64,000 bases of DNA from NCBI GenBank assembly GCA_046338525.1, contig JBKDWF010000040.1, positions 46,764 through 110,763 of the forward strand, given 5' to 3'. This DNA comes from Holosporales bacterium (GTDB lineage: Bacteria > Pseudomonadota > Alphaproteobacteria > JAJTHO01). Made by a program: the position numbers and the translations under genes. The notes beneath the pieces were generated by a model that was not told the origin of the DNA, ran no database searches, and saw nothing but the letters and a program-made list of their open reading frames with translations. This document shows, piece after piece, positions 579 through 26,254 of the stretch (the stretch's first letter is position 1; every line of letters starts with the position of its first letter).

Positions 579-761
579 ATGCGGTTTGGATTACTGGTGT
601 TGACACTCTTCCTCTTGGGGGGGTGCAGTTTTATCTTTGGCAGCAAGGAAGTGCCTGATCCCGTCGGTATTGGCCGTGCCCCAGATGCTTTAAAACAAAG
701 TCCTTGTGCGTGCCTTGAAGTTCCTCAGCAATGGGGGCCGCTAATTGTTGGCAGCAGCTAA
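579..761 (+). CDS. Small lipoprotein (60 aa), candidate VirB7-like T4SS lipoprotein
   Basis: An AGGGAG RBS precedes the ATG. The protein has a signal peptide with lipobox LLGG|C. Its size and its position immediately upstream of virB8 fit VirB7-like lipoproteins. No sequence-level homology can be asserted. Confidence 0.45.
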   Translation: MRFGLLVLTLFLLGGCSFIFGSKEVPDPVGIGRAPDALKQSPCACLEVPQQWGPLIVGSS

Positions 762-776
762 GAATAGGAAATATTA

Positions 777-1511
777 ATGGGATTCGGCGACAAACTCAAG
801 GCGACTTTTGGCACCGTCAATAGCGGTGACTCACTGCGTCCTGCTCCCTACGCCGGAGAAGACAAGATGGGAGCGTACCCCGCCGATGTTAGCGTTCCCG
901 CATTAGAAGGCAAACGCCAACTGTTCACCACCCGCGTTTTCGCGTTGGCGTTTACCGTGAGCATGCTGCTCAACGTCGTGCTGGCCTTTAGCCTAAGCGT
1001 CCTCATGCCGCTCAAACGGGTTGAACCATTTTTGCTTACCTTCAGCGATAAGAGCCAGCAAATCGTCCGTGTTGAGCCTATCAGCAAGGACGCCAGCGGC
1101 TTTCAGCTTCTCATCGAGAGCATGGCGAATGAATTTGTCAAAATCCGCGAGGAATTTATTTTTGACGAACAGGAACAGCAACGGCGCTGGACACAATACA
1201 TAAGACCTCGCGTACCGCAGCGTGAGTTTGAGTCTTTTCTTAAGGAAAGGGCTGAAGTAATTCCCAAAATTCGCGATGCCGGCCTTGGACTAAATGTTGA
1301 AATCGTTAGAACACAACGAGTAAGTCCCAATACCATCGAAGTATACTTTGAAACAACAATCGTTGATAAACGCGGCACGGTTAAAGGGCGCAATTCTTAC
1401 ATTGCCCGCATTTCGTTTGGCTTCCGGCAACAGGCCATCTCCCTCAGTGAACAATATCTTAACCCTCTTGGGTTTACAGTGCTTACTTATCAACGGATAG
1501 AAGCACGATGA
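777..1511 (+). CDS. virB8: Type IV secretion system protein VirB8
   Basis: Bitopic architecture: a short N-terminus, one TM (FALAFTVSMLLNVVLAFSLSVLM), then a periplasmic NTF2-like domain ending in the VirB8-typical NPLGF motif. The stop overlaps the virB9 start (ATGA). Confidence 0.8.
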   Translation: MGFGDKLKATFGTVNSGDSLRPAPYAGEDKMGAYPADVSVPALEGKRQLFTTRVFALAFTVSMLLNVVLAFSLSVLMPLKRVEPFLLTFSDKSQQIVRVEPISKDASGFQLLIESMANEFVKIREEFIFDEQEQQRRWTQYIRPRVPQREFESFLKERAEVIPKIRDAGLGLNVEIVRTQRVSPNTIEVYFETTIVDKRGTVKGRNSYIARISFGFRQQAISLSEQYLNPLGFTVLTYQRIEAR

Positions 1512-3148
1512 AGGGGTTGTTACCCTTAATAGTTGGCCTCTTTTTAGCGTCTCATGCACAGGCGCAGATCGGCCTTGCGCCGCCGCTAGGCAACCCCAAC
1601 ACCGTTCAGGGCGGCGGACAGCCTGATTTTATTCAGCAAACACAGCAAGACATACAACAGCAATCCCAAGGCAACTACCCCGACATGGTGCGGGACTTAA
1701 CCCCCTTGGGGGCTATCCAGCAAAGCTGGAACAACCCCGTCCCCAGCAGTGGCCAGATTTCCCCCGGTATTGTCCGCTACGTCTGGCGACCCGACTACGT
1801 CATGGCTATCCGGACGCGGGAATTCATGCAAACCACTATTGAACTGCCGCAATGGGAGAGTATTTCAGAAATTATTTTAGGGGACAGAACCGTTTTTGAA
1901 GCTCAAAAACTAGGTAAAGACTATATGCTTGCCATCCGCCCCACGCATCCAGGGGCTGATACCAACATGACGGTCATTGGTTCATCGGGAAATATCTACA
2001 ATTTTTATCTACGTTCGGAAGGCTGGAATTCCAAAAACATCACGGACTTCACCGTATTTGTCTTAGCTAACCCAGCCAATGCAGGTGCTTCTAACAGCAT
2101 CGGGGCAGTTCCTCATGCCCCCGGCGCTGGAACACCTATAAACGCCCTTACCGGACAACCCTTTGTGAACCAGCCCATGAGCGGGCTTACTGGCACACCC
2201 AGCGGCACCGCTTTTACCGGCAACACCGCACCCACCACCCCAGAATTTGTGCGTTCCATTGCCTTTGATCCCACCAACCTGCGCTTTGATCTAAAGATTT
2301 ACGCCCCCACCCCTGCCGACGTTGAGATTGCCCCCCTGCGGGCATTTACCGATGGCCTGTGGACGTATTTTGACTACGGAGAGAAAGCCGACACGGTGCG
2401 CCGCCCCGTTGTCTTTCGTGTTGTGGATGGCGTGGACAGCATGGTCAACACCCGCACCATGGGGCCAAGAGGCAATATCATTGTTGCCGAAGCCATTGGC
2501 AATTTCACCCTGCGCAATGGTGATCGCGTCGTTTGTGTTTACCAAGCTGGTGCGCCAAGAACTTTTGAAGGCAACCGCAGCATGCCGCCGCCAGTGCCCA
2601 GTAATGATCCTTCCCTTTTCTTTAACAACCGCCTTGATGGCGCTGCCGACAACGGACTTGGCCCCCAGTATAGCGGCTCCCCCATTGGCGGCGTCAACCG
2701 TCAGCCTAATTTTGCCAACGGCAACGGCGGCGCGATTGGGGGAAATTCGGTTCCAGCCGTTGCTGGCCCCATCGCCGCTCAGGGCATTGCCAACTATCAA
2801 AATTCCCCCATTGTGCCGCTTCAGCCCGCGCCGCAACCTGGCAGTTACAGCCAAGCCTACGGCGGTGTAGCCAACAATATCAGCATCGCTGGCCCCGCCA
2901 GCGTCGGCGGCCCACAATTGTACAGCAACCTACCATCACCTACCCAGACACTACCCCCTGGCTATACCCGACCACAAAGCATCTATAATAACAATTCCAT
3001 CACCACAGTACCCGCAACCACCGGCATAGGTTTTGGCCAACGCCCCCCACTTCCATCCATACCCGTACTACCTTCCAGTGGCGCGCGTACCTACGAGCCA
3101 TCACAACCTCCATCCCCCGCTGCGCTGCAGCAAGGATGGATAAAGTAA
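1508..3148 (+). CDS. virB9: Type IV secretion system protein VirB9 (CagX/TrbG family) with long low-complexity linker and C-terminal tail
   Basis: Signal peptide MKGLLPLIVGLFLASHAQA. The N-domain (VRYVWRPDYVMAIRTREFMQTTIELPQWE...YNFYLRSEG) and C-domain (FDLKIYAPTPADVEIAPLRAFTDGLWTYFDYGE...FRVVDGVDSMVNTRT...FTLRNGDRVVCVY) match the VirB9 fold. A roughly 200-aa P/G/N/S/Q-rich tail follows. Confidence 0.8.
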   Translation: MKGLLPLIVGLFLASHAQAQIGLAPPLGNPNTVQGGGQPDFIQQTQQDIQQQSQGNYPDMVRDLTPLGAIQQSWNNPVPSSGQISPGIVRYVWRPDYVMAIRTREFMQTTIELPQWESISEIILGDRTVFEAQKLGKDYMLAIRPTHPGADTNMTVIGSSGNIYNFYLRSEGWNSKNITDFTVFVLANPANAGASNSIGAVPHAPGAGTPINALTGQPFVNQPMSGLTGTPSGTAFTGNTAPTTPEFVRSIAFDPTNLRFDLKIYAPTPADVEIAPLRAFTDGLWTYFDYGEKADTVRRPVVFRVVDGVDSMVNTRTMGPRGNIIVAEAIGNFTLRNGDRVVCVYQAGAPRTFEGNRSMPPPVPSNDPSLFFNNRLDGAADNGLGPQYSGSPIGGVNRQPNFANGNGGAIGGNSVPAVAGPIAAQGIANYQNSPIVPLQPAPQPGSYSQAYGGVANNISIAGPASVGGPQLYSNLPSPTQTLPPGYTRPQSIYNNNSITTVPATTGIGFGQRPPLPSIPVLPSSGARTYEPSQPPSPAALQQGWIK

Positions 3149-3174
3149 TACTACAAAAAATTAAGGAGAGAGCG

Positions 3175-4560
3175 ATGTTACAGAAAATAAAAAGCCACCA
3201 TTTGATCACCGCAGCCTTGTGCCTGTTGTTGATAGGCTGCGCGAGCACGCCATCAGAACAACCAACTGTAAAACCTGTACTACCTATTGCTATAGATAAC
3301 GCAACAAACCGGCCTTTCTTCTGGGCGTACCAAGATCACCTAGGAGACCCTCTACCAAACAGATCCATAAAATCCGTTGTTTTACCCGAAGCCTTGTTAT
3401 CTGATGTATTACTCGGATTAATCGCGGACAGCGATTTACAACTAAATATAGACCCGGAAATTTCTGATCGTGGCCTGCAAAACGTCAACCTATCTGGCAC
3501 CCTTTCCGAAGCGTTAAATACTCTAGCTCAAGATAATGATTTTTTCGTGCTAAGACAGGGGCAGACGCTATACCTGAAACACAGCCTCAGCTACACTGTG
3601 CCCTTGCCTCCATTGGGTTTTTTTAGCGATTATCAAAGAGATAACCCAAAAAGCAACGCGGCATTATATAACGCCTCCCGCAACCCTTACCGCTCTTTTG
3701 TTGAAGCCCTTACCGCCGCCGGAGCTGTCAGTGTCAACGTTGACAGCAAAGAACGTCTGCTTCACTTCACTGCCAGCCGCGCCAGTCTTGCCGCAGTAGA
3801 CGCATTCCTAGAAGAACAGCGCCGCCTACCTACTGTGGCTTTTCGCACCCGAATTATCAGCTACGCCAACACAGCGTCCCCCAACGATCTTATTCCCGGT
3901 GCTAAAGCACAGGGCGATGCTTGGTTAGGAAAATTCAATGCCGATGATATTGTTCGTCACCTTACCGCTCAACGCTTGGGTAATAGCGTTATTGAAAACG
4001 GTCTCATCATTGTTCCCCTTGGCGGTGAAATACACGCCTCCGCCGGGGTTAATTCTGCCACAGAAGGTTGTCCCATGCTGGACAATCCTATAGGAGCATC
4101 ACTGTTGCAAATCGCCACCAGGAATCAAGATGGTGTCTTAGGGGTAAGCCTTACCTTACAAGCTGTTAATCTAGAGCGTCCTAGTGTACCATGCCGCCTG
4201 CCCGATACTTTACCTTTAATTGCCAACACCCAAACCTTTAATATTGAAGGTGGACGTTCCGTGTTCTTGCCCGGTGTCACCATCGGCCAAGACCGCAACC
4301 TAGGTCTGATTCTCGAATCCCCAGCTATTATCGGCCACATTACCGTTAAACCACCCCGCCCATTTCCGTCTAAGCCATTAGTTGTTAACGGTACGGGTAT
4401 TAGCATTTCCCAAGTCACGCCCATCACTCAAGAGCAACCGCCCCTGAAACCTGAGGAGAAACCCGCAAAAGCAGAAAAAAACTCCAAAAACACTAAAGAT
4501 ATAAAATCAAAGAAGAAACACACTAATAAAAAACAAAACACCATCACGTCAGAACAATAA
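3175..4560 (+). CDS. Lipoprotein of unknown function with secretin-N0/STN-like segment, embedded in the T4SS cluster
   Basis: The start was chosen at the ATG at 3175, six nt after an AAGGAGAGAG SD. The ORF track starts it at 3136. Lipobox LLIG|C. The segment NVNLSGTLSEALNTLAQDNDFFVLRQGQTLYLK resembles secretin-N0/STN domains. A beta-rich C-terminal region and a Lys-rich tail follow. It is co-oriented between virB9 and virB10. Confidence 0.6.
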   Translation: MLQKIKSHHLITAALCLLLIGCASTPSEQPTVKPVLPIAIDNATNRPFFWAYQDHLGDPLPNRSIKSVVLPEALLSDVLLGLIADSDLQLNIDPEISDRGLQNVNLSGTLSEALNTLAQDNDFFVLRQGQTLYLKHSLSYTVPLPPLGFFSDYQRDNPKSNAALYNASRNPYRSFVEALTAAGAVSVNVDSKERLLHFTASRASLAAVDAFLEEQRRLPTVAFRTRIISYANTASPNDLIPGAKAQGDAWLGKFNADDIVRHLTAQRLGNSVIENGLIIVPLGGEIHASAGVNSATEGCPMLDNPIGASLLQIATRNQDGVLGVSLTLQAVNLERPSVPCRLPDTLPLIANTQTFNIEGGRSVFLPGVTIGQDRNLGLILESPAIIGHITVKPPRPFPSKPLVVNGTGISISQVTPITQEQPPLKPEEKPAKAEKNSKNTKDIKSKKKHTNKKQNTITSEQ

Positions 4561-4569
4561 AAGTGATTT

Positions 4570-6285
4570 ATGTCACAAATTTTATTGACATATTCTAATT
4601 TTTGGCGATACTGGATACATCGACAAGATCGAGGTAAACAGATCATGGATAAAAGCCCCGGCATTTTCGGGTTTCACAGTTTTTTGCTCATGGCTATTTT
4701 ATGCCTAGCGGTACTAGGCCTATCTGCCTGCGGCAAAGACGAACCGCCCAGCCCACAGCAACAACCGCAACAAGAGCAAAAAGCCGATACCACGCCAGTT
4801 CAGGATCTTCTCAACATTGCCAACCAACAAAAAGAGTCCCCAAAAAAACCAGCCCTCCTAAAAAATCTTACCGGCGACATCAATCTTGGTAGCGGCAATA
4901 CCATTGGCGACGATCAAATTCGTGATATTACTCTTGAAAATGAAGGCGATGAACCACTCACCATCAAAAACATCACCCTCAACCCCCAAAATGTAACGGA
5001 ATTTGTTCTCGGCGGTAATTGCCTAGCCGGAGTTGTGCTTGATCCTTCACGAAAAGCATGCCGCTTAGAAGTTACCTTCAGACCCGTTAACAACCAAGAA
5101 ATTTCCGCCAGCATTGTTATCACCCACACAGGACAAAATGACACTCTCATAATTCAACTTTCCGGTTCCGGTGCAGAAGCCTATATTCCCCCAGAAATTG
5201 CTCAAGAAAAACCCACAGAACCTACCCAACAGCAGATCGAAGCCATGCGTCTGCAGATGGAACGACGCCAGGGACGGCTCTCCAGCACCCCATCGCTCAA
5301 GGGGCAGCTCCGCAATCAATGGATTATGTCCGACGCCGACTACAAAGATATCGGTTACGGTAAAACAACAGCCACCTTTCCCATTGATAGAACGCGGATG
5401 ATTACCAGCGATCGCTATATTCCTGCTGTCTTGGAAAATACCATCAGTTCACAAATTCCCAGAGGCCGGGTTGTTGCCGTTATTGAAAACCACGTTTATT
5501 CTGCCGAAGGTAGAAACATCCTTATCCCAGCAGGTAGCCGCGCTATTGGCGAATACGATGGCTCTAATAAGGCCGGAACGTCACGCCTTACCGTTGTTTG
5601 GAACCGTATCATTCGCCCCGACGGTGTTGGTATAAATGTTCGCTCCCCTTCCGCCGATCCTATGGGGCGTGTTGGTTTAATTGGTGATGTTGACAATCGC
5701 CTTTTCGATAGATTCGGCGTACCTCTACTGATATCCGCCATTGGTGTTGCCGCCAATTACGCCGCCTCACCCTCACAGGTCACTACCACCACGACCACAG
5801 GAGCATTGGGCATTCTTGGAACATCCACTTCAGAAACAACTACTCGGGAAAATCAAGCCGCACGGCAGTTCAGTGCCGATGCAGTACAAAAATCCCAAGA
5901 GTTCATCCAAAACACAATTTCAATTCAACCAATTATTACTGTTCCAGCCGGAACACGCTTCGTTATACTTCCCACACAGGATATCGAATTCAAAAGCCCG
6001 CAGCTCCTCACCGTTGCGGGAGAAGCGGGCAATATTGTCAGCCAAGCGCAGGCTCTTATTCGCGCCCTACAACGCGGAGACATCGCTGGCGGCTCAGAGC
6101 GGCTTATTGAAATTATTGGCCAAGTATCAAAAGCCGGCGCAATGGGGCAGCCAGGATTCGATACGAGCGGCTCTCCTACTGGTGCTTTTGGTGTTGATAA
6201 CAGCGGCACCAATCAAGTAGGAGGTGCCGCAAATAGTTACGGGCCGGGCCGCTCCAATATTAACCCTCCTATAAATAAGCCATAA
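4570..6285 (+). CDS. virB10: Type IV secretion system protein VirB10 (TrbI family)
   Basis: It has a short N-terminus, one hydrophobic segment and a PQ-rich region. The C-terminal VirB10/TrbI domain follows: AVLENTISSQIPRGRVVAVIENHVYSAEGRNILIPAGSRAIGEY...RLTVVWNRIIRPDGVGINV...GDVDNRLFDRFG. The start could instead be the ATG at 4645, which has a GAGG RBS and an LSAC lipobox-like motif. Confidence 0.85.
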   Translation: MSQILLTYSNFWRYWIHRQDRGKQIMDKSPGIFGFHSFLLMAILCLAVLGLSACGKDEPPSPQQQPQQEQKADTTPVQDLLNIANQQKESPKKPALLKNLTGDINLGSGNTIGDDQIRDITLENEGDEPLTIKNITLNPQNVTEFVLGGNCLAGVVLDPSRKACRLEVTFRPVNNQEISASIVITHTGQNDTLIIQLSGSGAEAYIPPEIAQEKPTEPTQQQIEAMRLQMERRQGRLSSTPSLKGQLRNQWIMSDADYKDIGYGKTTATFPIDRTRMITSDRYIPAVLENTISSQIPRGRVVAVIENHVYSAEGRNILIPAGSRAIGEYDGSNKAGTSRLTVVWNRIIRPDGVGINVRSPSADPMGRVGLIGDVDNRLFDRFGVPLLISAIGVAANYAASPSQVTTTTTTGALGILGTSTSETTTRENQAARQFSADAVQKSQEFIQNTISIQPIITVPAGTRFVILPTQDIEFKSPQLLTVAGEAGNIVSQAQALIRALQRGDIAGGSERLIEIIGQVSKAGAMGQPGFDTSGSPTGAFGVDNSGTNQVGGAANSYGPGRSNINPPINKP

Positions 6286-6289
6286 TTTT

Positions 6290-7396
6290 ATGAGCACCCT
6301 CAACAACAGCACCGCCCTTGACAATCCCCTACTCCTAAGGGCTCTGGAACCTATTGAAAATTATTATTCTAGTTCTGCAGTAGAAGAAATCGCCATCAAC
6401 CGCCCTGGCGAAATCATGATCAAAAAACATGGCAAATCTGGATGGGAGACAGTAACAGCAGAAGAGTTAAACCTGCGAAGCCTGCACGCTTTGTGCCGTA
6501 TGCTTGCCAATGTTACCGAACAATCTTTTGATCTCAACGATCTTCCTATTCTTGCAGCGACCTTGCCGCAAGGTCATCGTTTTCAAGCTGTACTTGGCAC
6601 CAACGTACGCTACGAAATGGGGGATACCAATGGCGTGGCAATATGCATAAGACGCTTTGATCTTAATAAAAAATTTAGCCTAGATGATTTTGATTTACGC
6701 CCACAACAAAAAGCTAAAGAAGACCTGGTGCACCGGGGCGTTGAAAAGAAACGTTACAGCGATTTTCCTTACGAAGATTTGGTATCAGCCGTACAACATG
6801 GTGAAGCTGTATTAATATCCGGGGCAACGTCCACAGGAAAAACAACATTTTTAAATGCACTTATTGATTTTATTCCACGCGATCGGCGTATTGTTACCGT
6901 AGAAGATACTCGGGAAGTTGTCGTACCTCACCCTAATCGAGTTCACTTTGTTGTCTCGCGTACCGCTGGAGCCAATAAAATTGGCTATACTCATATTCTC
7001 GACACCGTTGTTCGCATGACTCCTGATGTTATTGTTTGCGGAGAGGTTTCCGTCACAAATGCCAAGAGCATTTACCGTCTGATGACAACGGGGCATTCAA
7101 ACTTTATGGCAACTATTCACGCCGATTCACCGGAAATGGCACTACGCGCGTTTTGGCAAAACCTTACTCAGACCGATCCAGAACTTGATGCCGAAGCCGC
7201 CGTCGAAATTCTCGCCCGCAGCTTTGGCCGGATTGTACAAATTGACCGCTCCTCCGGTAAGCGCATTATAACCGCTGTGGATGCGCCAAATCTGGTTAAA
7301 AAAGTCGCTCATGAAGCATCGGGCATGACAATGGTACAAAAACCTGCTAATACACCAAAAACAAGAGGAAAAAAAGATGGTTCTAAGCCCTTTTAA
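6290..7396 (+). CDS. virB11: Type IV secretion system ATPase VirB11
   Basis: Walker A GATSTGKTT, followed by VTVEDTREV, a Walker B region and a His-box. The N-terminal domain matches VirB11/TrbB traffic ATPases. Confidence 0.9.
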   Translation: MSTLNNSTALDNPLLLRALEPIENYYSSSAVEEIAINRPGEIMIKKHGKSGWETVTAEELNLRSLHALCRMLANVTEQSFDLNDLPILAATLPQGHRFQAVLGTNVRYEMGDTNGVAICIRRFDLNKKFSLDDFDLRPQQKAKEDLVHRGVEKKRYSDFPYEDLVSAVQHGEAVLISGATSTGKTTFLNALIDFIPRDRRIVTVEDTREVVVPHPNRVHFVVSRTAGANKIGYTHILDTVVRMTPDVIVCGEVSVTNAKSIYRLMTTGHSNFMATIHADSPEMALRAFWQNLTQTDPELDAEAAVEILARSFGRIVQIDRSSGKRIITAVDAPNLVKKVAHEASGMTMVQKPANTPKTRGKKDGSKPF

Positions 7397-9461
7397 CCGC
7401 CAAGATTACGCCGAACAGAAACAGGCAACACTATACCTTTTTCAAGTACTTATCGGCTCTATTATTGCCTTCTTTTTCTTTGTTCCCTTGGTCACAGCAA
7501 CGTACACATTTATTAAATTTGGTGTCTCCCAGAAAGTCGTTTTAGCGGTAGAACAATACTTTAGCATGGCCAAAAACCCCATTTCTTGGTGGCAATGGCA
7601 CCTAAACTGGATTACCACTATTCGCCATGGAAATCCTTATGATTGGAGATTTATTTTTTTACCCGTTGAGATTGTTACATCATTAGGCGGCACCTTGGTC
7701 GTTTTTGTCGGCTTTATGTTAAGCAATCCTTACACTTTTCTCGTCACGACTTTTGGAAACGCGCGCATGGCAACCAGCCGCGACATCGACAAGATGCAGC
7801 TCCTTAAAGGTTGGATCGTCGTTCTAGGCGAGTGTCAACGTAAATTTCTTAAGCTTCCTGAAACCTTATCCGTGTTGTGCGTCGCCCCCCCTGGAACAGG
7901 AAAGACAGTCGCTATTGTCGTACCTACTATCCTTACCTGCAATAATGTATCTATGATTATCAATGATGTTAAACCAGAACTGTTTGATATTACAAGCGGA
8001 TATCGCAGTCAACACAGTTTTTGCCTCAAACTAGAATGGGCTGCAACCGACAATCCGGAACGAGGCATTTTCTATCCCCGTTGGAACGCTCTCTCTCCTT
8101 CTTCTATGCCGCCCCCCGGCGCACAGCGCGACTTGTATATTGATCGCTTAGTGAATATTCTTATTGAAGAACCAAAAGGAAGTGCCGATCCACACTGGAC
8201 AAAACGTGGTCGAGCCGTACTGGCCGGATTTATCCACTATCTTTGTTCCAAAATAGAAGCGGGAAACTGGAATAATATCCCCCTGAACTGGCAAGGGAAA
8301 GAGCCAAGTATTCCCATGCTACTCGACTGGATGACCGAAGCCCAAATTTCTGCCCAAGAAAAAGTCGAGCAACTGCGTAAAACCAACCCAATGGCCGCCA
8401 TGAGCGCGGATCCCATGCGTGATCTGCTGACCGATGCCGTGAAAGAATGCCGTGCCGGTAATTACAGCAACCGCGCCATTTTAGAACTTACCGCGTTGGC
8501 TAATACACCTGATAAGGAACGTGGTTCTATCATGTCTACTATGGATGGGGGACTTGTCGTATTTAAAAACAAAGCTGTACGCGATCGTACCAGCCAAAGC
8601 GATTTTTCCTTCATGGACGTGCGCGGGATGCGCGATCCAGTCACGGGAGAATATAAACCAATGAGCATTTATGTCTGCGTGACTCAGCAAGACGCCAAAG
8701 CCTTGGGTGTTATCACCGGTCTTTTAGTCGAAGCTTTATCCGCTTGGCTTGTCGCCTATCCGCCAAAATCCACCACACCCGATGGTCAAAAAGTCGGACC
8801 CTTTCCGGCTTTGTTTGTCCTTGATGAGTTTCCGCAAATGCCTAAGCTAAGGGCTTTAATTGATGGTCCGGCTGTTGGTCGTGGGCAAAAAGTAAGTTTT
8901 TTAATGATTGGCCAAGACTTAGGACAAATCACAGCTGTATACGGAAAAGACGAAGTAGAAACTGTTATCTCAACCACCGCCGCCAAGGTTGTTCTTGCAC
9001 AAAACAACGAGACTACCGCAAAACGCTTTTCAGAAATGGTGGGTCAACGAACAGTAGAAACAGCATCGCGTTCTCGTACTATGGGGGTAAGCCGGGAAAC
9101 AAATCCATTTGCTGCCAACGTTCAACGCAGCTTACAAGGACAGCCGCTCCTCCGCCCCGAAGATTTTATGACCATCCCCAAAGGAAAGCACTACGTTCTT
9201 TACCAAGGATATCTGTCTAGGCCTATTTTATGCGATACACCAGCATATTATAAACACCCATTACTTAGAACCCTTGTGGACCCGAGCAAGGGTGGGAAAT
9301 ACAAAGCTGCTTCCCCTATGCCCGCTTTCATGACCGAACGCCGCAAAGCGGAATACTTAGCCGAACAAGAGCAAGAACATCTTAAAAAAGCCATGCAAGC
9401 CAGCCTAGAGATAGAAGAAACCCAAAAATCAAAACGCTTACCCATAAATTCCGGGGGCTAA
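7377..9461 (+). CDS. virD4: Type IV coupling protein VirD4/TraG family
   Basis: N-terminal TM helices, Walker A VAPPGTGKTV, a Walker B-like LFVLDEFPQM and the length (694 aa) fit T4CP. It overlaps the virB11 3' end by 20 nt. Confidence 0.9.
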   Translation: MVLSPFNRQDYAEQKQATLYLFQVLIGSIIAFFFFVPLVTATYTFIKFGVSQKVVLAVEQYFSMAKNPISWWQWHLNWITTIRHGNPYDWRFIFLPVEIVTSLGGTLVVFVGFMLSNPYTFLVTTFGNARMATSRDIDKMQLLKGWIVVLGECQRKFLKLPETLSVLCVAPPGTGKTVAIVVPTILTCNNVSMIINDVKPELFDITSGYRSQHSFCLKLEWAATDNPERGIFYPRWNALSPSSMPPPGAQRDLYIDRLVNILIEEPKGSADPHWTKRGRAVLAGFIHYLCSKIEAGNWNNIPLNWQGKEPSIPMLLDWMTEAQISAQEKVEQLRKTNPMAAMSADPMRDLLTDAVKECRAGNYSNRAILELTALANTPDKERGSIMSTMDGGLVVFKNKAVRDRTSQSDFSFMDVRGMRDPVTGEYKPMSIYVCVTQQDAKALGVITGLLVEALSAWLVAYPPKSTTPDGQKVGPFPALFVLDEFPQMPKLRALIDGPAVGRGQKVSFLMIGQDLGQITAVYGKDEVETVISTTAAKVVLAQNNETTAKRFSEMVGQRTVETASRSRTMGVSRETNPFAANVQRSLQGQPLLRPEDFMTIPKGKHYVLYQGYLSRPILCDTPAYYKHPLLRTLVDPSKGGKYKAASPMPAFMTERRKAEYLAEQEQEHLKKAMQASLEIEETQKSKRLPINSGG

Positions 9462-9555: not shown

Positions 9556-9933
9556 ATGGCACAACGTTTATACACTAAATCCCACGAATGGATTGAAGTT
9601 AATGGCGATACAGCCACCGTTGGCATTACTGATTATGCCCAACACGCATTAGGCGATGTTGTCTATGTTGATATACCCGCAGCCGGAAAAATCGTTACAG
9701 CCGGCGCACCTGCAGCAGTAGTGGAATCAGTAAAAGCCGCCAGTGAGGTTTATGCACCAGTTTCTGGAACAATTACAGAAAGTAACGCTACTATTCAACT
9801 TGATCCATCTCTGGTCAACCGTGCTGCTGATAACGACGGTTGGTTTTTTCGTCTAAAAATTGCTAATAATAATGAACTTAAAAACCTACTCGATGAAACG
9901 GCTTATAAAAATTTATTATCAAGTTTATCATAA
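9556..9933 (+). CDS. gcvH: Glycine cleavage system H protein
   Basis: YTKSHEWIEV...GITDYAQ...VESVKAASEVYAPVSG carries the lipoyl-lysine motif and is typical of GcvH (125 aa). Confidence 0.85.
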   Translation: MAQRLYTKSHEWIEVNGDTATVGITDYAQHALGDVVYVDIPAAGKIVTAGAPAAVVESVKAASEVYAPVSGTITESNATIQLDPSLVNRAADNDGWFFRLKIANNNELKNLLDETAYKNLLSSLS

Positions 9934-9939
9934 GATTTT

Positions 9940-10506
9940 TTGGAGGCTACTTTGCCCACTTTAACTTTGGCTGATTATTTTACCCTAACCAGACTTGTTG
10001 CGGTTGTACCGTTACTTTTATTCTGGTGGCTTCCAGGGGGTGCATGGTTAGCCTTTGCTGTGTTAGCTGTTGCCTGTCTTACAGATTTTGCCGACGGAAT
10101 TATTGCTCGTCATCGCAAGGAGATTTCCCCATTTGGAACCATGATCGACCCTATTGCGGATAAAGTCTTGGTTATCTCTGCTTTATTAATGCTCGCCTTA
10201 AGTGGGATTCTGACCCTAATAGGGTTGGTGGCGTTTTGGATTATCTTATGGCGGGAAATTATCGTTTCTGGCCTACGAGAATACTTGGCTCAGCGCGGCT
10301 TATCTATGCCAGTAACCCCCATGGCGAAATACAAAACTGCTGCGCAGATGCTTGCCCTGTCCGGGTTATTTTTTGAACACGCTTGGCGCGGCGGTAACGC
10401 TGGCGCGTGGCTGTGGAGCGAAGGCGGCTTACTGCTGGCCACCGTCCTGACAGTATGGACGGGCATTGCTTATGGTAAGGCGACGATTGAGGCGTTGAAA
10501 GGGTAG
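9940..10506 (+). CDS. pgsA: CDP-diacylglycerol--glycerol-3-phosphate 3-phosphatidyltransferase (CDP-alcohol phosphatidyltransferase family), TTG start
   Basis: CDP-OH_P_transferase motif DFADGIIARHRKEISPFGTMIDPIADKVLV in a multi-TM protein. The start is an in-frame TTG, GGAGG-preceded. Confidence 0.7.
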   Translation: MEATLPTLTLADYFTLTRLVAVVPLLLFWWLPGGAWLAFAVLAVACLTDFADGIIARHRKEISPFGTMIDPIADKVLVISALLMLALSGILTLIGLVAFWIILWREIIVSGLREYLAQRGLSMPVTPMAKYKTAAQMLALSGLFFEHAWRGGNAGAWLWSEGGLLLATVLTVWTGIAYGKATIEALKG

Positions 10507-10556: not shown

Positions 10557-11847
10557 AGTTACGCTTCCACGCTGCCACAAAAAAACCATCTGTTCCATGT
10601 TGATGGGGCGTAAGCTGAAGACTATTTTCTTTAATCCCAACCAACTCACCCAACCCTGCCCTGCTGAATGCTTCTTTCATCACCAGCGGTGAAAATCCTA
10701 CTTCTACCTCATTAAACCAAGCAACTTGGGCATCATTTTCCTCACCAAGGAGTGAGCACGTCGCGTACCACAATTCTCCGCCCGGTTTTACTAATCGACC
10801 CGCCTGACTAAGAATAGCACGTTGCTTTGCTACTAATTCTTGAACATCTGCCGCCGTATAACGAAAACGGGCATCCGGGTTGCGTCGCCAAGTGCCAGTA
10901 CCTGTACACGGTGCATCAACTAAAACGCGATCGAATTTTCCGGCATTGCTAACGCACCAGCGATCTTCCATCAATCGCACCGTAGCGTTATGCACCCCCG
11001 CCTTGCGAATGCGGCGTTTGGCTTCCTCTAACCTCTTTGAAATAATATCAAGGGATACCAGCCTCCCCTTGTTTTCCATACTTGCAGCTAGAGCCAAACT
11101 TTTTCCCCCTGCACCGGCACAAAAATCAAGCACCGCCATTCCCGACTTTACCCCCACCAAGAGGGCAGCAAGCTGAGCCGCCTCATCCTGAATTTCCGCA
11201 TGCCCATTTTTCAAAGCAGGCAGACGATCAAAAGCAAAACGTTGACCTATCCTAATCCCCAACGGCGAGTGCGGCGTGGGCTGAGCGGACAAACCCGATG
11301 CCCTAACCTGCTCCAGCAACGCCATCCTATCAATGTGCAAGGTATTGACCCGCAAATCTACCGGTGCTTGTTTTTGTAGTGCATCAAGCAATATTGGCAG
11401 GCAATCCCCATAGCGCGCTTCCAACGTACTTGCCGCCCAGTCCGGACATTCTCCCTTCACCGCTAGCGGCATACTCACCTCGGCTTCGGTATCCACATGG
11501 AGACGTTCCAACTTTCGCCGCTCTCCGCCCGTTAGAGGTGCTGGAGCATATTGACTACCATTATAAATATTGGCCAGCGCTGCTGGCGTCTGACCCTCTA
11601 CAATAAGATGATACGCAAGAAGCCCCAAACGCGGCGTCCAATCTGCACCAGCCCGCACCAGCCTCCAAGTCAAGCGTACTCGGTACCGAAGAACACCATA
11701 CACTAATGCAGCAAGATGCTGCCTATCTCGGCTTCCTGCAAAACGATGTCTTCTACCCCAATGATGTAGCTCCCGATCCACAGGAACACCACCATGCGCA
11801 GCGGTAAGAATCTCTAAAGCCGCACTGGCCAACGCTGCCGGGGTCAT
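10555..11847 (-). CDS. rsmB: 16S rRNA (cytosine967-C5)-methyltransferase RsmB/Sun
   Basis: NusB-like N-terminus. SAM-binding motif DFCAGAGGKS. Motifs DRVLVDAPCTGTG and a PC/TC catalytic cysteine. Confidence 0.8.
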   Translation of the reverse strand: MTPAALASAALEILTAAHGGVPVDRELHHWGRRHRFAGSRDRQHLAALVYGVLRYRVRLTWRLVRAGADWTPRLGLLAYHLIVEGQTPAALANIYNGSQYAPAPLTGGERRKLERLHVDTEAEVSMPLAVKGECPDWAASTLEARYGDCLPILLDALQKQAPVDLRVNTLHIDRMALLEQVRASGLSAQPTPHSPLGIRIGQRFAFDRLPALKNGHAEIQDEAAQLAALLVGVKSGMAVLDFCAGAGGKSLALAASMENKGRLVSLDIISKRLEEAKRRIRKAGVHNATVRLMEDRWCVSNAGKFDRVLVDAPCTGTGTWRRNPDARFRYTAADVQELVAKQRAILSQAGRLVKPGGELWYATCSLLGEENDAQVAWFNEVEVGFSPLVMKEAFSRAGLGELVGIKENSLQLTPHQHGTDGFFVAAWKRN

Positions 11848-12938
11848 GATAGCACCGCCAGCACATCGGCATCTTTTACGTCCCGCCGTTCAACGGCGTT
11901 TCCAATAGAATTAAGCAAAATAAATGTTTTTTTACCACCAACGGTTTTTTTATCGCTTTCCATTACTTTTAATAAATCATGGGGTTTTAAAGTAAAGCTA
12001 GGCAATAAGTCTTTTAAAGTACGAGGATACTCAAGACCATCGAGATGATCCTCAATCGCCACTACTTGATGTGCTTCTAACATGTCTAAACGAGCCGACA
12101 ACCTTGCCGCAAGCCGAATTCCATACGCTACTGCTTCGCCATGAAGAAGAACACTGTTGTTATAACCAACAGCAGCTTCTAATGCATGACCAAACGTATG
12201 ACCAAAATTAAGCAATGCCCGAACTCCAGCTTCACGCTCATCTTTGCTAACGATTAAAGCTTTAGTACGACAGCTATGGGAAATAGCTATTTTTAAAGCT
12301 TCATCATCTCCGTCCAGTATTGCTTGGGCATGACTTTGGCACCATGCAAAAAAACTTGCATCATCAATAAGACCGTATTTTAAAATTTCCGCGTAACCAG
12401 CGCGACGTTCCCGCATGGGTAGTGTCTTTAAGCAATCCAGATCAATAATAACCCGCACCGGTTGGTAAAATGTTCCTATTAAATTTTTACCGGCATGAGT
12501 ATTGATGGCTGTTTTTCCGCCAACAGAACTATCCACTTGGGCTAAAAGAGTTGTAGGAATTTGAACAAAAGGAATACCCCGCAGGGCTATACTGGCCACA
12601 AAACCGCCCAAATCACCAACAACCCCTCCACCTAATGCAATGAGAAGCGTCTTACGATCAATAGGCCAACCTAGGATTTTTTCCAAAACTTCTTGTAAAA
12701 CGGTAAAACTTTTTGCTTCTTCTCCCGCAGGGACAATAAGAGGAAGAATAGCCTTGTTACCAAGAATTTTCTCAATAGTTTTTTGGTATAAAGGAGCAAC
12801 ATTTGTATCGCTAAGTAAGATAATTTTTTTGGTTACATCTAACCATGGTGTAAGCTCTTTTTCTAAATGTGCTAAGCTACCGTTAGAAATCGTAATGTCA
12901 TAACGATGATGCTGTGTTTGTACAGAAATAGAAGTCAT
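11844..12938 (-). CDS. aroB: 3-dehydroquinate synthase
   Basis: GGGVVGDLGGF, a KTAINT motif and HGEAV..GIR: NAD- and metal-binding motifs of AroB (364 aa). Confidence 0.9.
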   Translation of the reverse strand: MTSISVQTQHHRYDITISNGSLAHLEKELTPWLDVTKKIILLSDTNVAPLYQKTIEKILGNKAILPLIVPAGEEAKSFTVLQEVLEKILGWPIDRKTLLIALGGGVVGDLGGFVASIALRGIPFVQIPTTLLAQVDSSVGGKTAINTHAGKNLIGTFYQPVRVIIDLDCLKTLPMRERRAGYAEILKYGLIDDASFFAWCQSHAQAILDGDDEALKIAISHSCRTKALIVSKDEREAGVRALLNFGHTFGHALEAAVGYNNSVLLHGEAVAYGIRLAARLSARLDMLEAHQVVAIEDHLDGLEYPRTLKDLLPSFTLKPHDLLKVMESDKKTVGGKKTFILLNSIGNAVERRDVKDADVLAVLS

Positions 12939-13041
12939 CAGTAGAGTATAACCACTTTATTTTTTGAGAAAACTTAATAACACTCTTCTTCCTATAATTT
13001 TTTTTAGAAATGGTTGTAGTAGTAAGTAGTGCCCATAAAAG

Positions 13042-13272
13042 TGGGGATAACTTTTTTATCTTTTTTATACACAAAGTTTTCCACAGTTATTTGTATGAAA
13101 ATACTTTTTAAAATAAGGAATTAAAAATTATCCCCAAGGATTAAAGCACTTTTGTTCACAGTGTTTTTTTTACCAAAAACTCATATAAGAAGAATAGAGG
13201 AGTGCGTATAGTTTTGCTATACTCTTAAAATAGGCCTGTTATCCACAATCTATCCACAAGCCTATGGATAAT
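13042..13272. promoter_or_regulatory. Cluster of six DnaA-box-like 9-mers in AT-rich intergenic DNA (candidate oriC or DnaA-regulated region)
   Basis: One perfect box: TTATCCACA at 13239-13247. Five one-mismatch boxes: tggggataa at 13042-50 (reverse); TTTTCCACA at 13076-84; TTATCCCCA at 13128-36; CTATCCACA at 13250-58; tatggataa at 13263-71 (reverse). Confidence 0.45.
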
Positions 13273-13999
13273 TATAATTTGCTACAAAAACCTTTAGTAG
13301 CGACAACACCACAATCGCTAAAATTGCTATTCCCACAAGGATTTGCGCTGGAACAATAATAAAAAATATTTGTACCTGTGGCATGAGGCGTGACAACATT
13401 CCAACAGCTATATTGAAAATAATTCCTAAAATAAGCAGTGGTGCAGCTAATTGAACACCGATATGAAAAGCATCAGCGAAGATGCGGCTTAGATGATTGC
13501 TTGCATCAATAATATTGAATGTTGTACCAATAGGGAAAGAAATATAGCTTTGCGCCAAAGCCTTAAAGGTGTTGTGGTGAAGTTCAGCGGTAAAAATAGC
13601 AGTCACCCCAGCCATCGTTAAAAACACGGAAAATAAGTTGCCCTGTTGCCCAAGGCTTGGGTTTAACAGTGAGGCATTTGACATCCCTGTTTGTAAACCA
13701 ATAATAGAACCGGCAACATCCAAGGCACTGAGCAGAAATTTTGCCATTAATCCAAAAAAAACGCCAATGGCAATTTCTTGAATTATATAAACAAATGTTT
13801 GTAGACCACTTTCTGGAACAGAAGGAAGTGGGGTAAGAGGCCAAAGAACTAAGCTGAAAAGGATAGCAAAGGCTAGGCGCACTTTTGCAGGAACAAATAT
13901 TTGATCCAAGCCAGGCATTAAAGAAATAAGGCTCCCTACCCGACAAAAAGTCATTAAAAAAGCAAATGTTTCCTGCGGAAGAAGATTTAGCAGAGACAT
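13262..13999 (-). CDS. fliR: Flagellar biosynthetic protein FliR
   Basis: 245-aa polytopic membrane protein. Its N-terminus TFAFLMTFCRVGSLISLMPGLDQIFVPAKVRLAFAIL is typical of FliR. It lies directly downstream of fliQ. Confidence 0.85.
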   Translation of the reverse strand: MSLLNLLPQETFAFLMTFCRVGSLISLMPGLDQIFVPAKVRLAFAILFSLVLWPLTPLPSVPESGLQTFVYIIQEIAIGVFFGLMAKFLLSALDVAGSIIGLQTGMSNASLLNPSLGQQGNLFSVFLTMAGVTAIFTAELHHNTFKALAQSYISFPIGTTFNIIDASNHLSRIFADAFHIGVQLAAPLLILGIIFNIAVGMLSRLMPQVQIFFIIVPAQILVGIAILAIVVLSLLKVFVANYNYP

Positions 14000-14000
14000 C

Positions 14001-14267
14001 CTAACTGCCTTGAATCATGCGTTGGAAAAGTTCCAATGTGAATGATTGTAATGTGTTAAACATAAAAGGAAGAAACAACGCAGTTGCGGCAAAAACAGCA
14101 ATGACTTTTGGTACAAAAGACAAGGTGCTTTCTTGAATTTGGGTAAGAGCCTGAAACAAAGATATCACAAGTCCAACAATAAGAGTGATAATCAGCAGCG
14201 GCGCCCCAACCTTGAGGGTCGTCCAGAGCGCTTGTTGGGTAATCTCTAAAACATCACTGAAATTCAT
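14001..14267 (-). CDS. fliQ: Flagellar biosynthetic protein FliQ
   Basis: 88 aa with two TMs. The FliQ signature is QQALWTTLKVGAPLLIITLIVGLVISLFQALTQIQE. Confidence 0.85.
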   Translation of the reverse strand: MNFSDVLEITQQALWTTLKVGAPLLIITLIVGLVISLFQALTQIQESTLSFVPKVIAVFAATALFLPFMFNTLQSFTLELFQRMIQGS

Positions 14268-14327
14268 GGTTAAAGACTTAAAAGCAAAGAGTTGCCAAAT
14301 AGTAAATAACTGGGGAAATGTAAGATT

Positions 14328-15242: not shown

Positions 15243-15250
15243 TGGGGTCA

Positions 15251-15347
15251 TATACTCCTTGCACATGAAGAATGTGCAAGGGATTCGCTCAAGCGCCGCG
15301 CGGGCTGTACCACTCGCAAGCTTAGATAGGAAGTCTTCATGTGCGAG
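15251..15347. repeat. Structured ~100-bp repeat, copy 1 (second copy at 49651-49757)
   Basis: The 70-nt core tatactccttgcacatgaagaatgtgcaagggNttcgctcaag.gccgcgcgggctgtacc.ctcgcaag is about 95% identical to the second copy. It has an internal hairpin (ttgcacatg/catgtgcaa) and long-range complementarity (gcacatgaag...cttcatgtgc). It lies between convergent genes. Confidence 0.6.
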
Positions 15348-15834: not shown

Positions 15835-15838
15835 GATT

Positions 15839-24083: not shown

Positions 24084-24086
24084 AAT

Positions 24087-26240: not shown

Positions 26241-26254
26241 GGTTTTACTTAAAC

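Follow-up and report, generated by a model that had tools for sequence, protein, structure and literature searches.

A relaxase-less VirB7-VirD4 islet among core genes of a Holosporales-labelled bacterium, probably part of a dispersed chromosomal type IV secretion system

The rvh effector-translocating system is a chromosomal P-type type IV secretion system (T4SS) whose genes lie in islets among core genes; one of these islets carries B7-B8-B9-B10-B11-D4 without a relaxase, with virB7 directly 5' of virB8 and a KSP-Cys-type motif in its product, and the system probably arose from a mobile element before being inherited vertically (PMC2653234; Schon et al. 2022, PMC9352585). Its hallmarks are duplicates of B4, B8 and B9, multicopy B6 and the lack of B5 (PMC2653234; PMC9352585). 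The X-T4SSs are also chromosomal and sometimes occupy two segments, virB7-11 and virB1-6 (PMC3093366, Souza et al. 2011; PMC6536674, Sgro et al. 2019). The islet described here resembles rvh in layout but, judging from its proteins, appears to have arisen separately.

The islet was found in a window of 64 kb, the whole stretch of DNA analysed, from an uncultured alphaproteobacterium labelled Holosporales and not Rickettsiales. Seven genes, all on the + strand and bounded exactly at 579-9461, stand in the order proposed by the first-pass annotation: a VirB7-like lipoprotein gene (579-761, 60 aa), virB8 (777-1511), virB9 (1508-3148, 546 aa), a gene for a lipoprotein that we call X (3136-4560, 474 aa), virB10 (4570-6285, 571 aa, or 546 aa from M26), virB11 (6290-7396, 368 aa) and virD4 (7377-9461, 694 aa). 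In keeping with the proposed translational coupling, the genes are tightly packed, with overlaps of 4 nt (B8/B9), 13 nt (B9/X) and 20 nt (B11/D4) and remaining gaps of 4-15 nt, and all seven reading frames are intact, ATPase motifs included. As had also been noted, the islet is embedded in the core genome: it begins 56 nt after the 3' end of leuC (88-522, +; NCBIfam leuC 5e-74), and 94 nt separate virD4 from gcvH (9556-9933, +), which with pgsA (together 9556-10506, +) continues on the strand of the islet. No terminator-like site was seen in the virD4-gcvH gap. The 10 kb further upstream of leuC hold mnmG, parA, ruvX, gmk, glyA and ispE and no T4SS genes, and the locus is identical in several independent assemblies (JGI, Logan, ENA, NCBI MAGs).

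The reported lack of virB2-B6 and of a relaxase was confirmed: a Pfam scan of every window ORF of at least 100 aa, and BLAST with VirB2-B6, MobA and DnaB queries taken from the closest complete systems, found neither these nor an integrase in the 64 kb. Likewise, no tRNA target or repeat occurs within the 64 kb or the 10 kb further upstream. A relaxase-less sub-cluster that lies apart from virB2-B6 and within core genes is very unlikely to be capable of self-transfer. The description of the core genes as mid-to-high in GC needs qualifying, since the window averages 50% GC and core-gene GC3 ranges gene by gene from 0.25 to 0.74; the T4SS genes are mid-range (0.38-0.57), and their composition is not island-like. 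With its leu, trp, pur and aro pathways retained, along with genes for flagella and cytochrome bd, the organism is not a reduced intracellular symbiont.

In a neighbour-joining tree of one protein, VirD4, the window sequence falls (96% bootstrap) in a chromosomal clade of 'Holosporales'-labelled freshwater MAGs, Telmatospirillum and gut alphaproteobacteria, among them the cultured Telmatospirillum siberiense. Telmatospirillum is a free-living genus. VirD4 of the 17 other clade members in the tree is 40-79% identical to that of the window, and their T4SS genes are partitioned differently, every time among housekeeping genes: as D4-B7-B8-B9-X-B10-B11 adjoining nuoI, as B10-B11-D4 adjoining nusG or fliD, as virD4 alone, or as B3-B4 islets, one of which stands separately in a gut-bacterial relative. 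The sister group (98%) consists of contiguous T4SSs with a MobA/MobL relaxase on alphaproteobacterial megaplasmids, and a search of 72,556 plasmid records returned four alphaproteobacterial megaplasmids as the closest homologues (VirD4 34-41% identical; ordinary TraG about 25%). We consider that the islet probably belongs to a dispersed, vertically inherited chromosomal P-type T4SS that descended from a relaxase-linked megaplasmid system, was altered within the clade and exports protein.

The first-pass annotation had instead taken the relaxase-less, split layout as a hallmark of rvh. The architecture is indeed rvh-like, but the expected kinship is not found in the proteins. In BLASTP with Rickettsia Rvh sequences taken from the PMC2653234 supplement, RvhD4 matched the window VirD4 at 22.7% identity and 119 bits, against 34% and 248 bits for an IncU TraG, and in the tree it lies outside the chromosomal clade, grouped with TraG beyond the 96% split. 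RvhB11 scored 32% and 154 bits, below VirB11 of a Microvirga megaplasmid (38%, 222 bits); RvhB8b had no match in the islet, and RvhB9a matched over 74 residues only. By these comparisons, Rvh proteins are no closer to the islet proteins than generic P-type T4SS proteins are. A virB6/virB7 split also occurs in some chromosomal bacteria-killing X-T4SSs (PMC6536674), so that the split is not an rvh hallmark.

Both predicted lipoproteins carry a lipobox, LLGGC in the 60-aa protein and LLIGC in X. The 60-aa protein matched nothing in Pfam or NCBIfam; its VirB7-like identity is upheld by its place directly upstream of virB8 and by a conserved motif, GIG...LK(Q/R)SPCAC(L)E.PQ, whose K-x-SPC part, with the second Cys after K-x-S-P, resembles the [KI]KSP-Cys of Rickettsia VirB7 and ComB7 (PMC2653234). 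Orthologues occupy the same place in the clade (L010, 66% identical; L011, L079, L080) and in the relaxase-linked systems L070, L071 and L081. VirB8 has an N-terminal transmembrane helix and a periplasmic domain (Pfam VirB8 9.7e-23), with Bartonella VirB8 (1.5e-8) and R. typhi RvhB8-II (1.4e-4) as its best PDB sequence matches. A 480-bp hyperdivergent recombination tract distinguishes virB8 between strains (about 1019-1500; 76 differences from L077/L078, with flanks 0-1% different). VirB9 comprises a signal peptide, two domains separated by a low-complexity insert and a P/G/Q-rich tail of about 200 aa (Pfam CagX 1.4e-26; NCBIfam VirB9 1e-21; PDB TrwF 8.9e-8), and differs from strain variants at 0-2 positions only.

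X, which has a lysine-rich tail and possibly starts at M14 (3175), matched no Pfam, NCBIfam or PDB entry on its own, and its homologues form just 12 clusters among 1.84 billion representative proteins. Two of the 12 are genuine Secretin proteins (P0165 and P0166; Pfam 2.9e-17 at residues 317-488 of P0165), and hhalign of the X-clade profile against these two gave a probability of 99.2% and an E value of 1.6e-19 over X residues 60-304. A secretin could not be demonstrated in the C-terminal third, the conserved barrel segments are lacking, and the AF2 model (pLDDT 33) is unusable. The slot of X between virB9 and virB10 is common to L010, L011, L080 and L079, and one relative has it filled by a genuine secretin together with genes resembling those of type IV pili. 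These profile matches indicate that X is a secretin-derived outer-membrane lipoprotein; the feature is particular to the chromosomal clade.

VirB10, for which M26 (4645) is an alternative start, has an Ig-like domain at roughly residues 100-200 and, towards the C terminus, a TrbI barrel domain at 278-474 (Pfam TrbI 2.2e-46 with weak Ig-like matches; NCBIfam VirB10 4.5e-46, ComB10 2.9e-42, choice-of-anchor D 1.2e-8), and its best PDB sequence match is ComB10 (3.8e-29). Its signal peptide is closed by a lipobox, LSAC, that is present in all nine clade members examined and missing in L070, L071, L081 and RvhB10; this lipobox, in place of the usual VirB10 transmembrane anchor, is particular to the chromosomal clade.

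VirB11 has an intact Walker A motif (GATSTGKTT; NCBIfam VirB11 1.3e-58, Pfam T2SSE 2.4e-25; PDB Brucella VirB11 2.7e-24) and shows no non-synonymous difference between strains. VirD4 has N-terminal transmembrane helices, Walker A (APPGTGKT) and Walker B (FVLDEFPQ) motifs and the Pfam domains T4SS-DNA_transf (5.9e-59), TraG-D_C and TrwB_AAD_bind; its AF2 model (pLDDT 90.6) has Cag-beta (5.6e-23) and TrwB as best solved folds. Purifying selection acts on VirD4 (dN/dS 0.04-0.10), VirB11, VirB9 and VirB8 (0-0.13 over the four). In X and VirB10, dN/dS is raised, to 0.3-0.9 on few substitutions (0.28-0.68 for X), which could also mean relaxed constraint.

We propose that the chromosome of the clade ancestor captured a conjugative, relaxase-linked T4SS from alphaproteobacterial megaplasmids, and that the system was then fragmented in a different way in each lineage. 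In this clade VirB10 has become a lipoprotein, and a secretin-derived lipoprotein has its gene between virB9 and virB10. The islet encodes the outer-membrane and periplasmic core (VirB7-like lipoprotein, VirB9, VirB10 and the accessory X) together with VirB8, an assembly factor, and, of the three motor ATPases, VirB11 and VirD4, the latter being the substrate receptor. VirB2-B6, which form the inner-membrane and pilus parts, presumably have their genes in another part of the genome; the gut relative, too, has VirB3-VirB4 in an islet of their own. X may decorate the outer-membrane core complex, by analogy with the N0 domain of Xanthomonas VirB7 or with DotD. A domesticated system that exports proteins is most likely, and we infer in this sense that the T4SS is 'effector-type': VirD4 would recruit protein substrates, which would be pushed by contact into another cell, either bacterial or eukaryotic. 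No effector, secretion signal or immunity gene was recognised, which counts against this reading.

The recipient is the point of the best-surviving alternative, in which the system kills bacteria on contact, functionally like an X-T4SS, rather than manipulating a host; we regard it as possible but on balance unlikely. The chromosomal location, the virB6/virB7 split and an additional lipoprotein whose N-terminal domains are of secretin type and recall the N0 domain of X-T4SS VirB7 are in keeping with it, as are a clade that holds cultured T. siberiense and gut bacteria, a window organism that is no reduced symbiont, and the proposal of such a role for ancestral rvh (PMC9352585). However, the VirB7-like protein, only 60 aa long, lacks an N0 domain, neither an XVIPCD effector nor an immunity pair was recognised, and Xanthomonas VirB10 (1.9e-17) and VirB9 (0.11) match more weakly than ComB10 or TrwE/TrwF. 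An apparatus that still conjugates or mobilises DNA, with its relaxase and oriT elsewhere in the genome, is improbable. The retention of VirD4 under strong selection would suit it, and in the nearest complete relatives the genes run colinear with a MobA/MobL (MOBQ) relaxase, a DnaB-like helicase, a primase and topoisomerase III, but the relaxase, integrase, tRNA target and repeat are missing from the 64 kb and the 10 kb further upstream, the composition is not that of an island, and the differing islets among core genes in the 17 other clade members of the tree are incompatible with transfer as a unit. The earlier view that this is not a conjugative element thus holds for the relaxase-less, core-embedded window copy, which no longer looks conjugative, and not for its lineage, whose ancestry is conjugative.

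Marginally less probable still is a hybrid in which VirB8-B11/D4 works with a type-IV-pilus-like filament instead of or beside VirB2-B6, X being a secretin-like port or its remnant. It draws on the L079/L007 lineage, whose gene order, joined from two loci with proteins 50-77% identical, runs B7-B8-B9-secretin-165aa-PilB/GspE-like ATPase-PilC/GspF-like platform-290aa-158aa-Wzy_C-two pilin-like proteins-B10-B11-D4, and in which the secretin is homologous to X and shares its position. The window, however, encodes neither a pilus ATPase nor a platform protein or pilin, X is without the barrel segments, and VirB3-VirB4 of the gut relative indicates that classical inner parts exist in the clade; moreover, IncI plasmids show that a T4SS may simply be encoded alongside an accessory type IVb pilus. 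Decay of an integrated conjugative element, with the islet as its non-functional remnant, is very improbable: the missing partner genes and the raised dN/dS of X and VirB10 would agree with decay, but the ORFs and ATPase motifs are intact, virB8, virB9, virB11 and virD4 are constrained, and the gene set is conserved across a broad clade at 40-79% identity. Descent from the rvh system shared with Rickettsia, Anaplasma and related genera is the weakest reading and scarcely credible, since the common islet layout, the placement and motif of the VirB7-like protein, and the ComB10 match of VirB10 beside the ComB affinity of rvh B7/B9 (PMC2653234) are outweighed by the BLASTP and tree results, which contradict it, the Holosporales label and the lack of a B8 or B9 duplicate in the window.

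Compared with the described systems, the islet of the proposed domesticated T4SS differs from rvh in host lineage, in the lack of a specific sequence relationship, and in its X subunit and VirB10 lipobox, neither of which rvh has. It shares with the X-T4SSs an extra secretin-type domain carried by an outer-membrane lipoprotein that is assigned to the core complex; there, N0 is fused to VirB7, whereas the window has a minimal VirB7 and carries the secretin-type domains on a separate 474-aa protein, and neither XVIPCD effectors nor close sequence similarity link the two. Lipoprotein secretins occur in type IVb pili, for instance PilN in the IncI thin pilus. X, P0165 and P0166 are likewise lipoproteins, the latter two with N-terminal domains preceding the Secretin domain, and the L079 secretin is followed by pilus ATPase and platform genes; X differs in having no detectable Secretin domain and in being encoded within a virB operon. 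Helicobacter ComB, which serves DNA uptake, provides the best solved-structure match of VirB10, with all scores below family cut-offs; it is not known to have VirD4 or VirB11, both of which the islet has. The megaplasmid T4SSs of Erythrobacter aureus (NZ_CP031358), Sphingosinicella (NZ_CP035502) and Microvirga (NZ_CP069357) differ in being contiguous from B2 to D4 beside the relaxase and replication genes named above, in lacking X, and in a VirB10 with the usual transmembrane anchor and no Ig-like domain by Pfam, but they share with the islet the small lipoprotein motif, the B7-B8-B9-B10-B11-D4 order and identities of 35-41% in VirD4, 37-38% in VirB11 and 35-36% in VirB9.

The seven genes of the islet (579-9461) all lie on the + strand, exactly at the coordinates given in the first-pass annotation; they encode a small VirB7-like lipoprotein of 60 aa (579-761; lipobox LLGGC), VirB8 (777-1511; Pfam, 9.7e-23), VirB9 (1508-3148; Pfam CagX, 1.4e-26), a 474-aa lipoprotein that we call X (3136-4560), VirB10 (4570-6285; Pfam TrbI, 2.2e-46), VirB11 (6290-7396; NCBIfam, 1.3e-58) and VirD4 (7377-9461; Pfam, 5.9e-59). 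VirB8, VirB9, VirB10, VirB11 and VirD4 carry their characteristic domains (Pfam/NCBIfam E-values of 1e-22 to 6e-59), which identifies a P-type (class A, VirB/VirD4) type IV secretion system (T4SS). The lipobox, small size and position of the 60-aa lipoprotein fit VirB7, but a P[ILV]NK motif is not clearly present and none of the profiles matched. The genes are tightly packed, with overlaps of 4 nt (virB8/virB9), 13 nt (virB9/X) and 20 nt (virB11/virD4) and gaps of 4-15 nt elsewhere, and a promoter and terminator scan gave no signal beyond shuffled expectation. All seven reading frames and the Walker motifs are intact, and the predicted structure of VirD4 (pLDDT 90.6) matches the Cag-beta and TrwB folds.

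The islet is bounded by the 3' end of leuC and by gcvH-pgsA, all on the same strand, in line with the earlier placement between leuC and gcvH, and its sequence is matched base for base in several independent assemblies. The earlier statement that virB2-B6 and a relaxase are missing also held: neither Pfam, scanned over every window ORF of at least 100 aa, nor BLAST with the VirB2-B6, MobA/MobL and DnaB sequences of the closest complete systems detected virB2-B6 or anything else T4SS-related in the window outside the islet, and neither virB2, virB3, virB4 and virB6 nor a relaxase was found in the 64-kb window or a further 10 kb upstream. A VirB4-profile scan of metagenomes returned at least 15 loci, none of the matches listed being from the source samples. 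The remaining window genes are housekeeping genes (purL, glnE, trpB, cydAB, gltX, tgt, pdhAB, recJ, prfC, fliQR and others), and a JGI contig shows mnmG, parA, ruvX, gmk, glyA and ispE in the next 10 kb upstream. A conjugative element (ICE or plasmid) would be recognized by a MOB relaxase and oriT near its T4SS genes and by an integrase with an attachment site at a tRNA or repeat; neither a relaxase nor an integrase occurs in the window or the 10 kb upstream, Pfam detected no integrase among window ORFs of at least 100 aa, and the only tRNA calls in the window, at 39.3 and 49.8 kb, are 30-40 kb from the islet. The islet is likewise not a compositional island, as core-gene GC3 varies so widely that the values of the T4SS genes (0.38-0.57) fall within its range.

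Several features of the surroundings deserve mention in their own right. The leuC gene (88-522) precedes the islet without leuD, no leuD (aconitase C-terminal domain) is seen anywhere in the window, and the T4SS islet may have split the leuCD pair. Core-gene GC3 is hugely variable, from 0.67-0.74 in leuC, trpB, purL, glnE and tgt to 0.25-0.32 in gcvH, aroB, fliR and a kinase-like gene, and the trpB-purL-glnE block of about 61% GC adjoins regions of about 40% GC (e.g. 22902-28906 versus 11844-17884); this gene-to-gene contrast suggests that several biosynthetic genes are of foreign origin or that the genome is a mosaic. One of the tRNA calls, an ARAGORN tRNA-Ser with the unusual anticodon ACT (39283-39356, + strand), lies within cydB on the opposite strand and is probably a false positive.

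Comparison with strain variants that are 98.6% identical gave dN/dS values of 0.04-0.10 for VirD4, 0 for VirB11, 0 for VirB9, 0.13 for VirB8 and 0.28-0.68 for X. Within virB8, a 480-bp hyperdivergent tract (1019-1500) differs from two strain variants, L077 and L078, at 76 positions and is flanked by sequence that is about 99-100% identical, which points to a recombination or gene-conversion patch in the VirB8 periplasmic domain derived from a divergent allele. We speculate that a paralogous virB8 could be the donor; the window holds one virB8 and one virB9. The two domains of VirB9 (1508-3148) are separated by a low-complexity insert, and the protein has a P/G/Q/S-rich tail of about 200 aa. 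The virB9 gene is near-invariant among strains (0-2 differences in 1641 nt); the neighbouring X and VirB10, by contrast, gather non-synonymous changes.

A VirD4 identical to that of the window, as well as near-identical ones, is deposited as 'MAG: Holosporales bacterium', the taxonomy being the depositors' label. More distant relatives (40-79% identity) are found in alphaproteobacterial MAGs, some of them from Lake Mendota, in Telmatospirillum and in a large set of gut MAGs that bear the labels Azospirillum or Acetobacter sp. CAG or Candidatus Enterousia. The T4SS genes are divided differently in each lineage, always amid core genes: the 79% relative has nuoI-virD4-B7-B8-B9-X-B10-B11; elsewhere the order is B7-B8-B9-X-B10-B11-D4, B10-B11-D4 adjoins secE-nusG or other core genes, or virD4 stands wholly alone, and in gut relatives an orphan virD4 lies at a distance of 6 kb from a VirB3-VirB4 islet. 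Such lineage-specific partitions amid core genes argue for long chromosomal residence and vertical inheritance, unlike a mobile element.

A further window gene recurs near virD4 in some of these genomes. The window encodes, at 15337-17884 on the - strand, a 681-aa protein with a weak, sub-threshold protein-kinase-like match (3.9e-7) and a membrane anchor at its C-terminus, whose 165-aa neighbour lies 6 kb from virD4. In six loci of gut alphaproteobacteria (L028, at 739-3263, L030, L036, L039, L047 and L067), a kinase-like protein of 22-24% identity is encoded 7-9 kb away from the orphan virD4, and the 165-aa partner is found in two of the six (L028 and L067). No other window gene recurs among these loci, save ssb in L030. 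A functional link is possible.

The nearest complete systems are found on megaplasmids. A tblastn search of 72,556 plasmids with VirD4 gave four matches at 34-41% identity, all on alphaproteobacterial megaplasmids, below which ordinary TraG proteins fall to about 25% identity. Three of the four (Erythrobacter, Sphingosinicella and Microvirga) carry a contiguous MobA/MobL-(DnaB)-B2-B3-B4-B5-B6-small lipoprotein-B8-B9-B10-B11-D4 array, followed by topoisomerase III, primase and ribonucleotide reductase genes. Every window component except X has a homologue there, in the same order and with the motif of the small lipoprotein included. In a single-protein, neighbour-joining tree of VirD4 (29 sequences, 655 columns, 300 bootstraps, with supports computed as splits), the scattered chromosomal forms make up one clade (96%), hereafter the chromosomal clade, whose sister is the relaxase-linked megaplasmid clade (98%). 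The large megaplasmid module (L070, L071 and L081, from Erythrobacter, Microvirga and Sphingosinicella) is conserved and of interest in itself: alongside a full T4SS it brings together the MobA/MobL relaxase, the DnaB-like helicase, topoisomerase III, Rad52, CHC2 primase, SSB, ribonucleotide reductase and a protein of about 1400 aa. It looks like an under-recognised family of conjugative elements, two of the three megaplasmids being typed 'non-mobilizable' by MOB-suite.

VirB10 differs between the two clades at its N-terminus, which in all nine chromosomal-clade members examined is a signal peptide that ends with a lipobox (LSAC|GKDE in the window) and in the three relaxase-linked sister systems, as in RvhB10 of Rickettsia, is the canonical cytoplasmic segment followed by a transmembrane helix. 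The VirB10 proteins of the chromosomal clade also match an Ig-like domain, weakly in the window and more strongly in Telmatospirillum; Pfam detected none in the megaplasmid VirB10s.

The other peculiarity of the core is X, which by itself has no match in Pfam, NCBIfam or the PDB. Word-based searches with X gave only 2 hits. When 1.84 billion representative proteins were searched exhaustively with phmmer, only 12 clusters of homologues emerged, and among them the distant pair P0165 and P0166 are true secretins (PF00263, 2.9e-17, residues 317-488 of P0165). When the X-clade profile was aligned with P0165/P0166 by hhalign, residues 60-304 of X matched with a probability of 99.2% (E 1.6e-19), a span that takes in the N-terminal domains and roughly the initial 30 residues of the secretin domain. 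PF00263 itself was detected in none of the 10 X-clade members (alignment A5), even at E<=1, the X-clade profile did not match GspD, and the C-terminal piece of X gave an hhalign probability of only 7%, the rest of X being without conserved barrel segments. Beyond residues 60-304, X is not demonstrably a secretin. X diverges fast, with 36% identity (37% with the start set by the gene caller) where VirD4 has 79%, and an AF2 model made from a two-sequence alignment was unusable (pLDDT 33). In the locus of the 79% relative (L010), the X orthologue as called (5954-7384) lacks a signal peptide and is preceded by a 75-aa ORF (5697-5924), which may reflect a frameshift or a mis-called start.

Genomic position gives X a second tie to P0165. 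The P0165 gene directly follows virB8-virB9 and is itself followed by genes for a PilB/GspE-like ATPase, a PilC/GspF-like platform protein and small membrane proteins, and in L007, a closely related locus, the order runs on through a Wzy_C protein and two pilin-like proteins to virB10-virB11-virD4; joined together, the two orders show virB9 and virB10 enclosing a type-IV-pilus-like module in this lineage. The nested module (L079:5851-15272 and L007:1-12037, from a relative with a 1.6 Mb genome) comprises a lipoprotein secretin, the ATPase, the platform protein, two small membrane proteins, the Wzy_C protein and the two pilin-like proteins. In four other lineages the position of the secretin is taken by X, which shares with P0165 both the N-terminal domains and the place in the gene order. 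Xanthomonas VirB7 and DotD, with their N0 domains (PMC3093366, PMC6536674), offer an analogy by which X may build a ring at the periphery of the core complex.

The islet most probably encodes the outer-membrane/periplasmic core, together with two ATPases, of a domesticated and dispersed T4SS. A single scheme could accommodate its features, and we offer it tentatively, judging it somewhat less probable than its alternatives taken together: a MOBQ-type conjugative T4SS would have been domesticated once and scattered over the chromosome and its envelope-spanning core rebuilt, VirB10 losing its inner-membrane helix to become a lipoprotein with an Ig-like domain, and a secretin from a type-IV-pilus module being recruited as an additional subunit at the outer membrane and reduced later. 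A living intermediate, or a true hybrid of T4SS and type IV filament, might then be seen in the lineage whose complete pilus module lies between virB9 and virB10. If confirmed, a lipid-anchored VirB10 and a secretin-derived subunit would challenge the picture of VirB10 as an energy sensor that spans both membranes and would tie T4SSs to type IV filament architectures.

The presence of VirD4 with no relaxase linked to it, and the dispersal of the genes, speak for proteins as the substrates. Rich metabolism and flagellar genes in the window organism, and a clade that takes in the cultured Telmatospirillum siberiense as well as gut bacteria, make an interbacterial role as plausible as the manipulation of a eukaryotic host. 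Telmatospirillum is free-living, and the clade offers a possibly culturable model.

Among known chromosomal systems, the X-T4SS of Xanthomonadales is defined by chromosomal location, by an N0 domain at the C-terminus of VirB7, by a complete set of 12 subunits and by XVIPCD effectors (PMC6536674). The window system shares the chromosomal location, but its 60-aa VirB7-like lipoprotein lacks the N0 domain. Within Holosporales, amoeba-associated members carry plasmid-borne archetypal vir operons and F-like tra clusters (PMC5751055), one Hepatincola strain has a reduced T4SS (PMC9992710), and a recent review puts the type VI system first among candidates for host interaction, with no discussion of such a T4SS (PMC11909080). 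Our literature search did not find the dispersed family, the VirB10 lipobox or a secretin-derived subunit of a virB operon described, which is no proof of novelty.

The first-pass annotation had assigned the islet to rvh, the vir homolog T4SS of Rickettsiales, on account of its split layout and its coupling protein without a relaxase. The scattered rvh is treated as a signature of Rickettsiales (PMC11077975, PMC9352585, PMC10847448), is regarded as a key step to host association (PMC11077975, PMC9352585) and has as its hallmarks duplicated VirB4, VirB8 and VirB9, a multicopy VirB6 and the lack of VirB5 (PMC11077975). Like rvh, the window system consists of islets scattered amid chromosomal core genes without a linked relaxase, and its small lipoprotein, directly upstream of virB8, carries K-Q-S-P-C, close to the [KI]KSP-Cys motif reported in Rickettsia VirB7 and ComB7 (Gillespie et al., PMC2653234). 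The host, however, is labelled Holosporales by its depositors, not Rickettsiales, and the split layout is not diagnostic, because a virB6/virB7 split is also known from some chromosomal X-T4SS loci (PMC6536674). Descent from rvh was not borne out by the proteins either. Against the complete Rickettsia sequences that Gillespie et al. (2009; PMC2653234) give in their Figure S9, window VirD4 shares 22.7% identity with RvhD4 (119 bits), which has 34% (248 bits) with IncU TraG; window VirB11 shares 32% with RvhB11 (154 bits) and 38% with Microvirga VirB11 (222 bits); VirB10 shares 30% with RvhB10 across 168 residues, VirB9 shares 26% with RvhB9a across 74 residues, and VirB8 and RvhB8b do not match. 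In the VirD4 tree, RvhD4 lies outside the chromosomal clade, with the TraG outgroups across the 96% split. L064, a locus from a 'Rickettsiales bacterium' MAG, was rejected as an rvh proxy; it does not pair with RvhD4 (1% bootstrap) and is of another type, with an insert of about 700 aa between B10 and B11 that it has in common with a Thalassospira plasmid system. The weak Rvh matches and the placement of RvhD4 together indicate that the resemblance to rvh is architectural and convergent rather than one of descent. A second, independent 'archipelago' T4SS would have arisen in alphaproteobacteria outside Rickettsiales, an unrelated lineage having reached an rvh-like, dispersed and relaxase-free layout in bacteria that include Telmatospirillum and abundant gut members, and it would offer a separate case in which to ask why T4SSs break up once domesticated and what use they serve.
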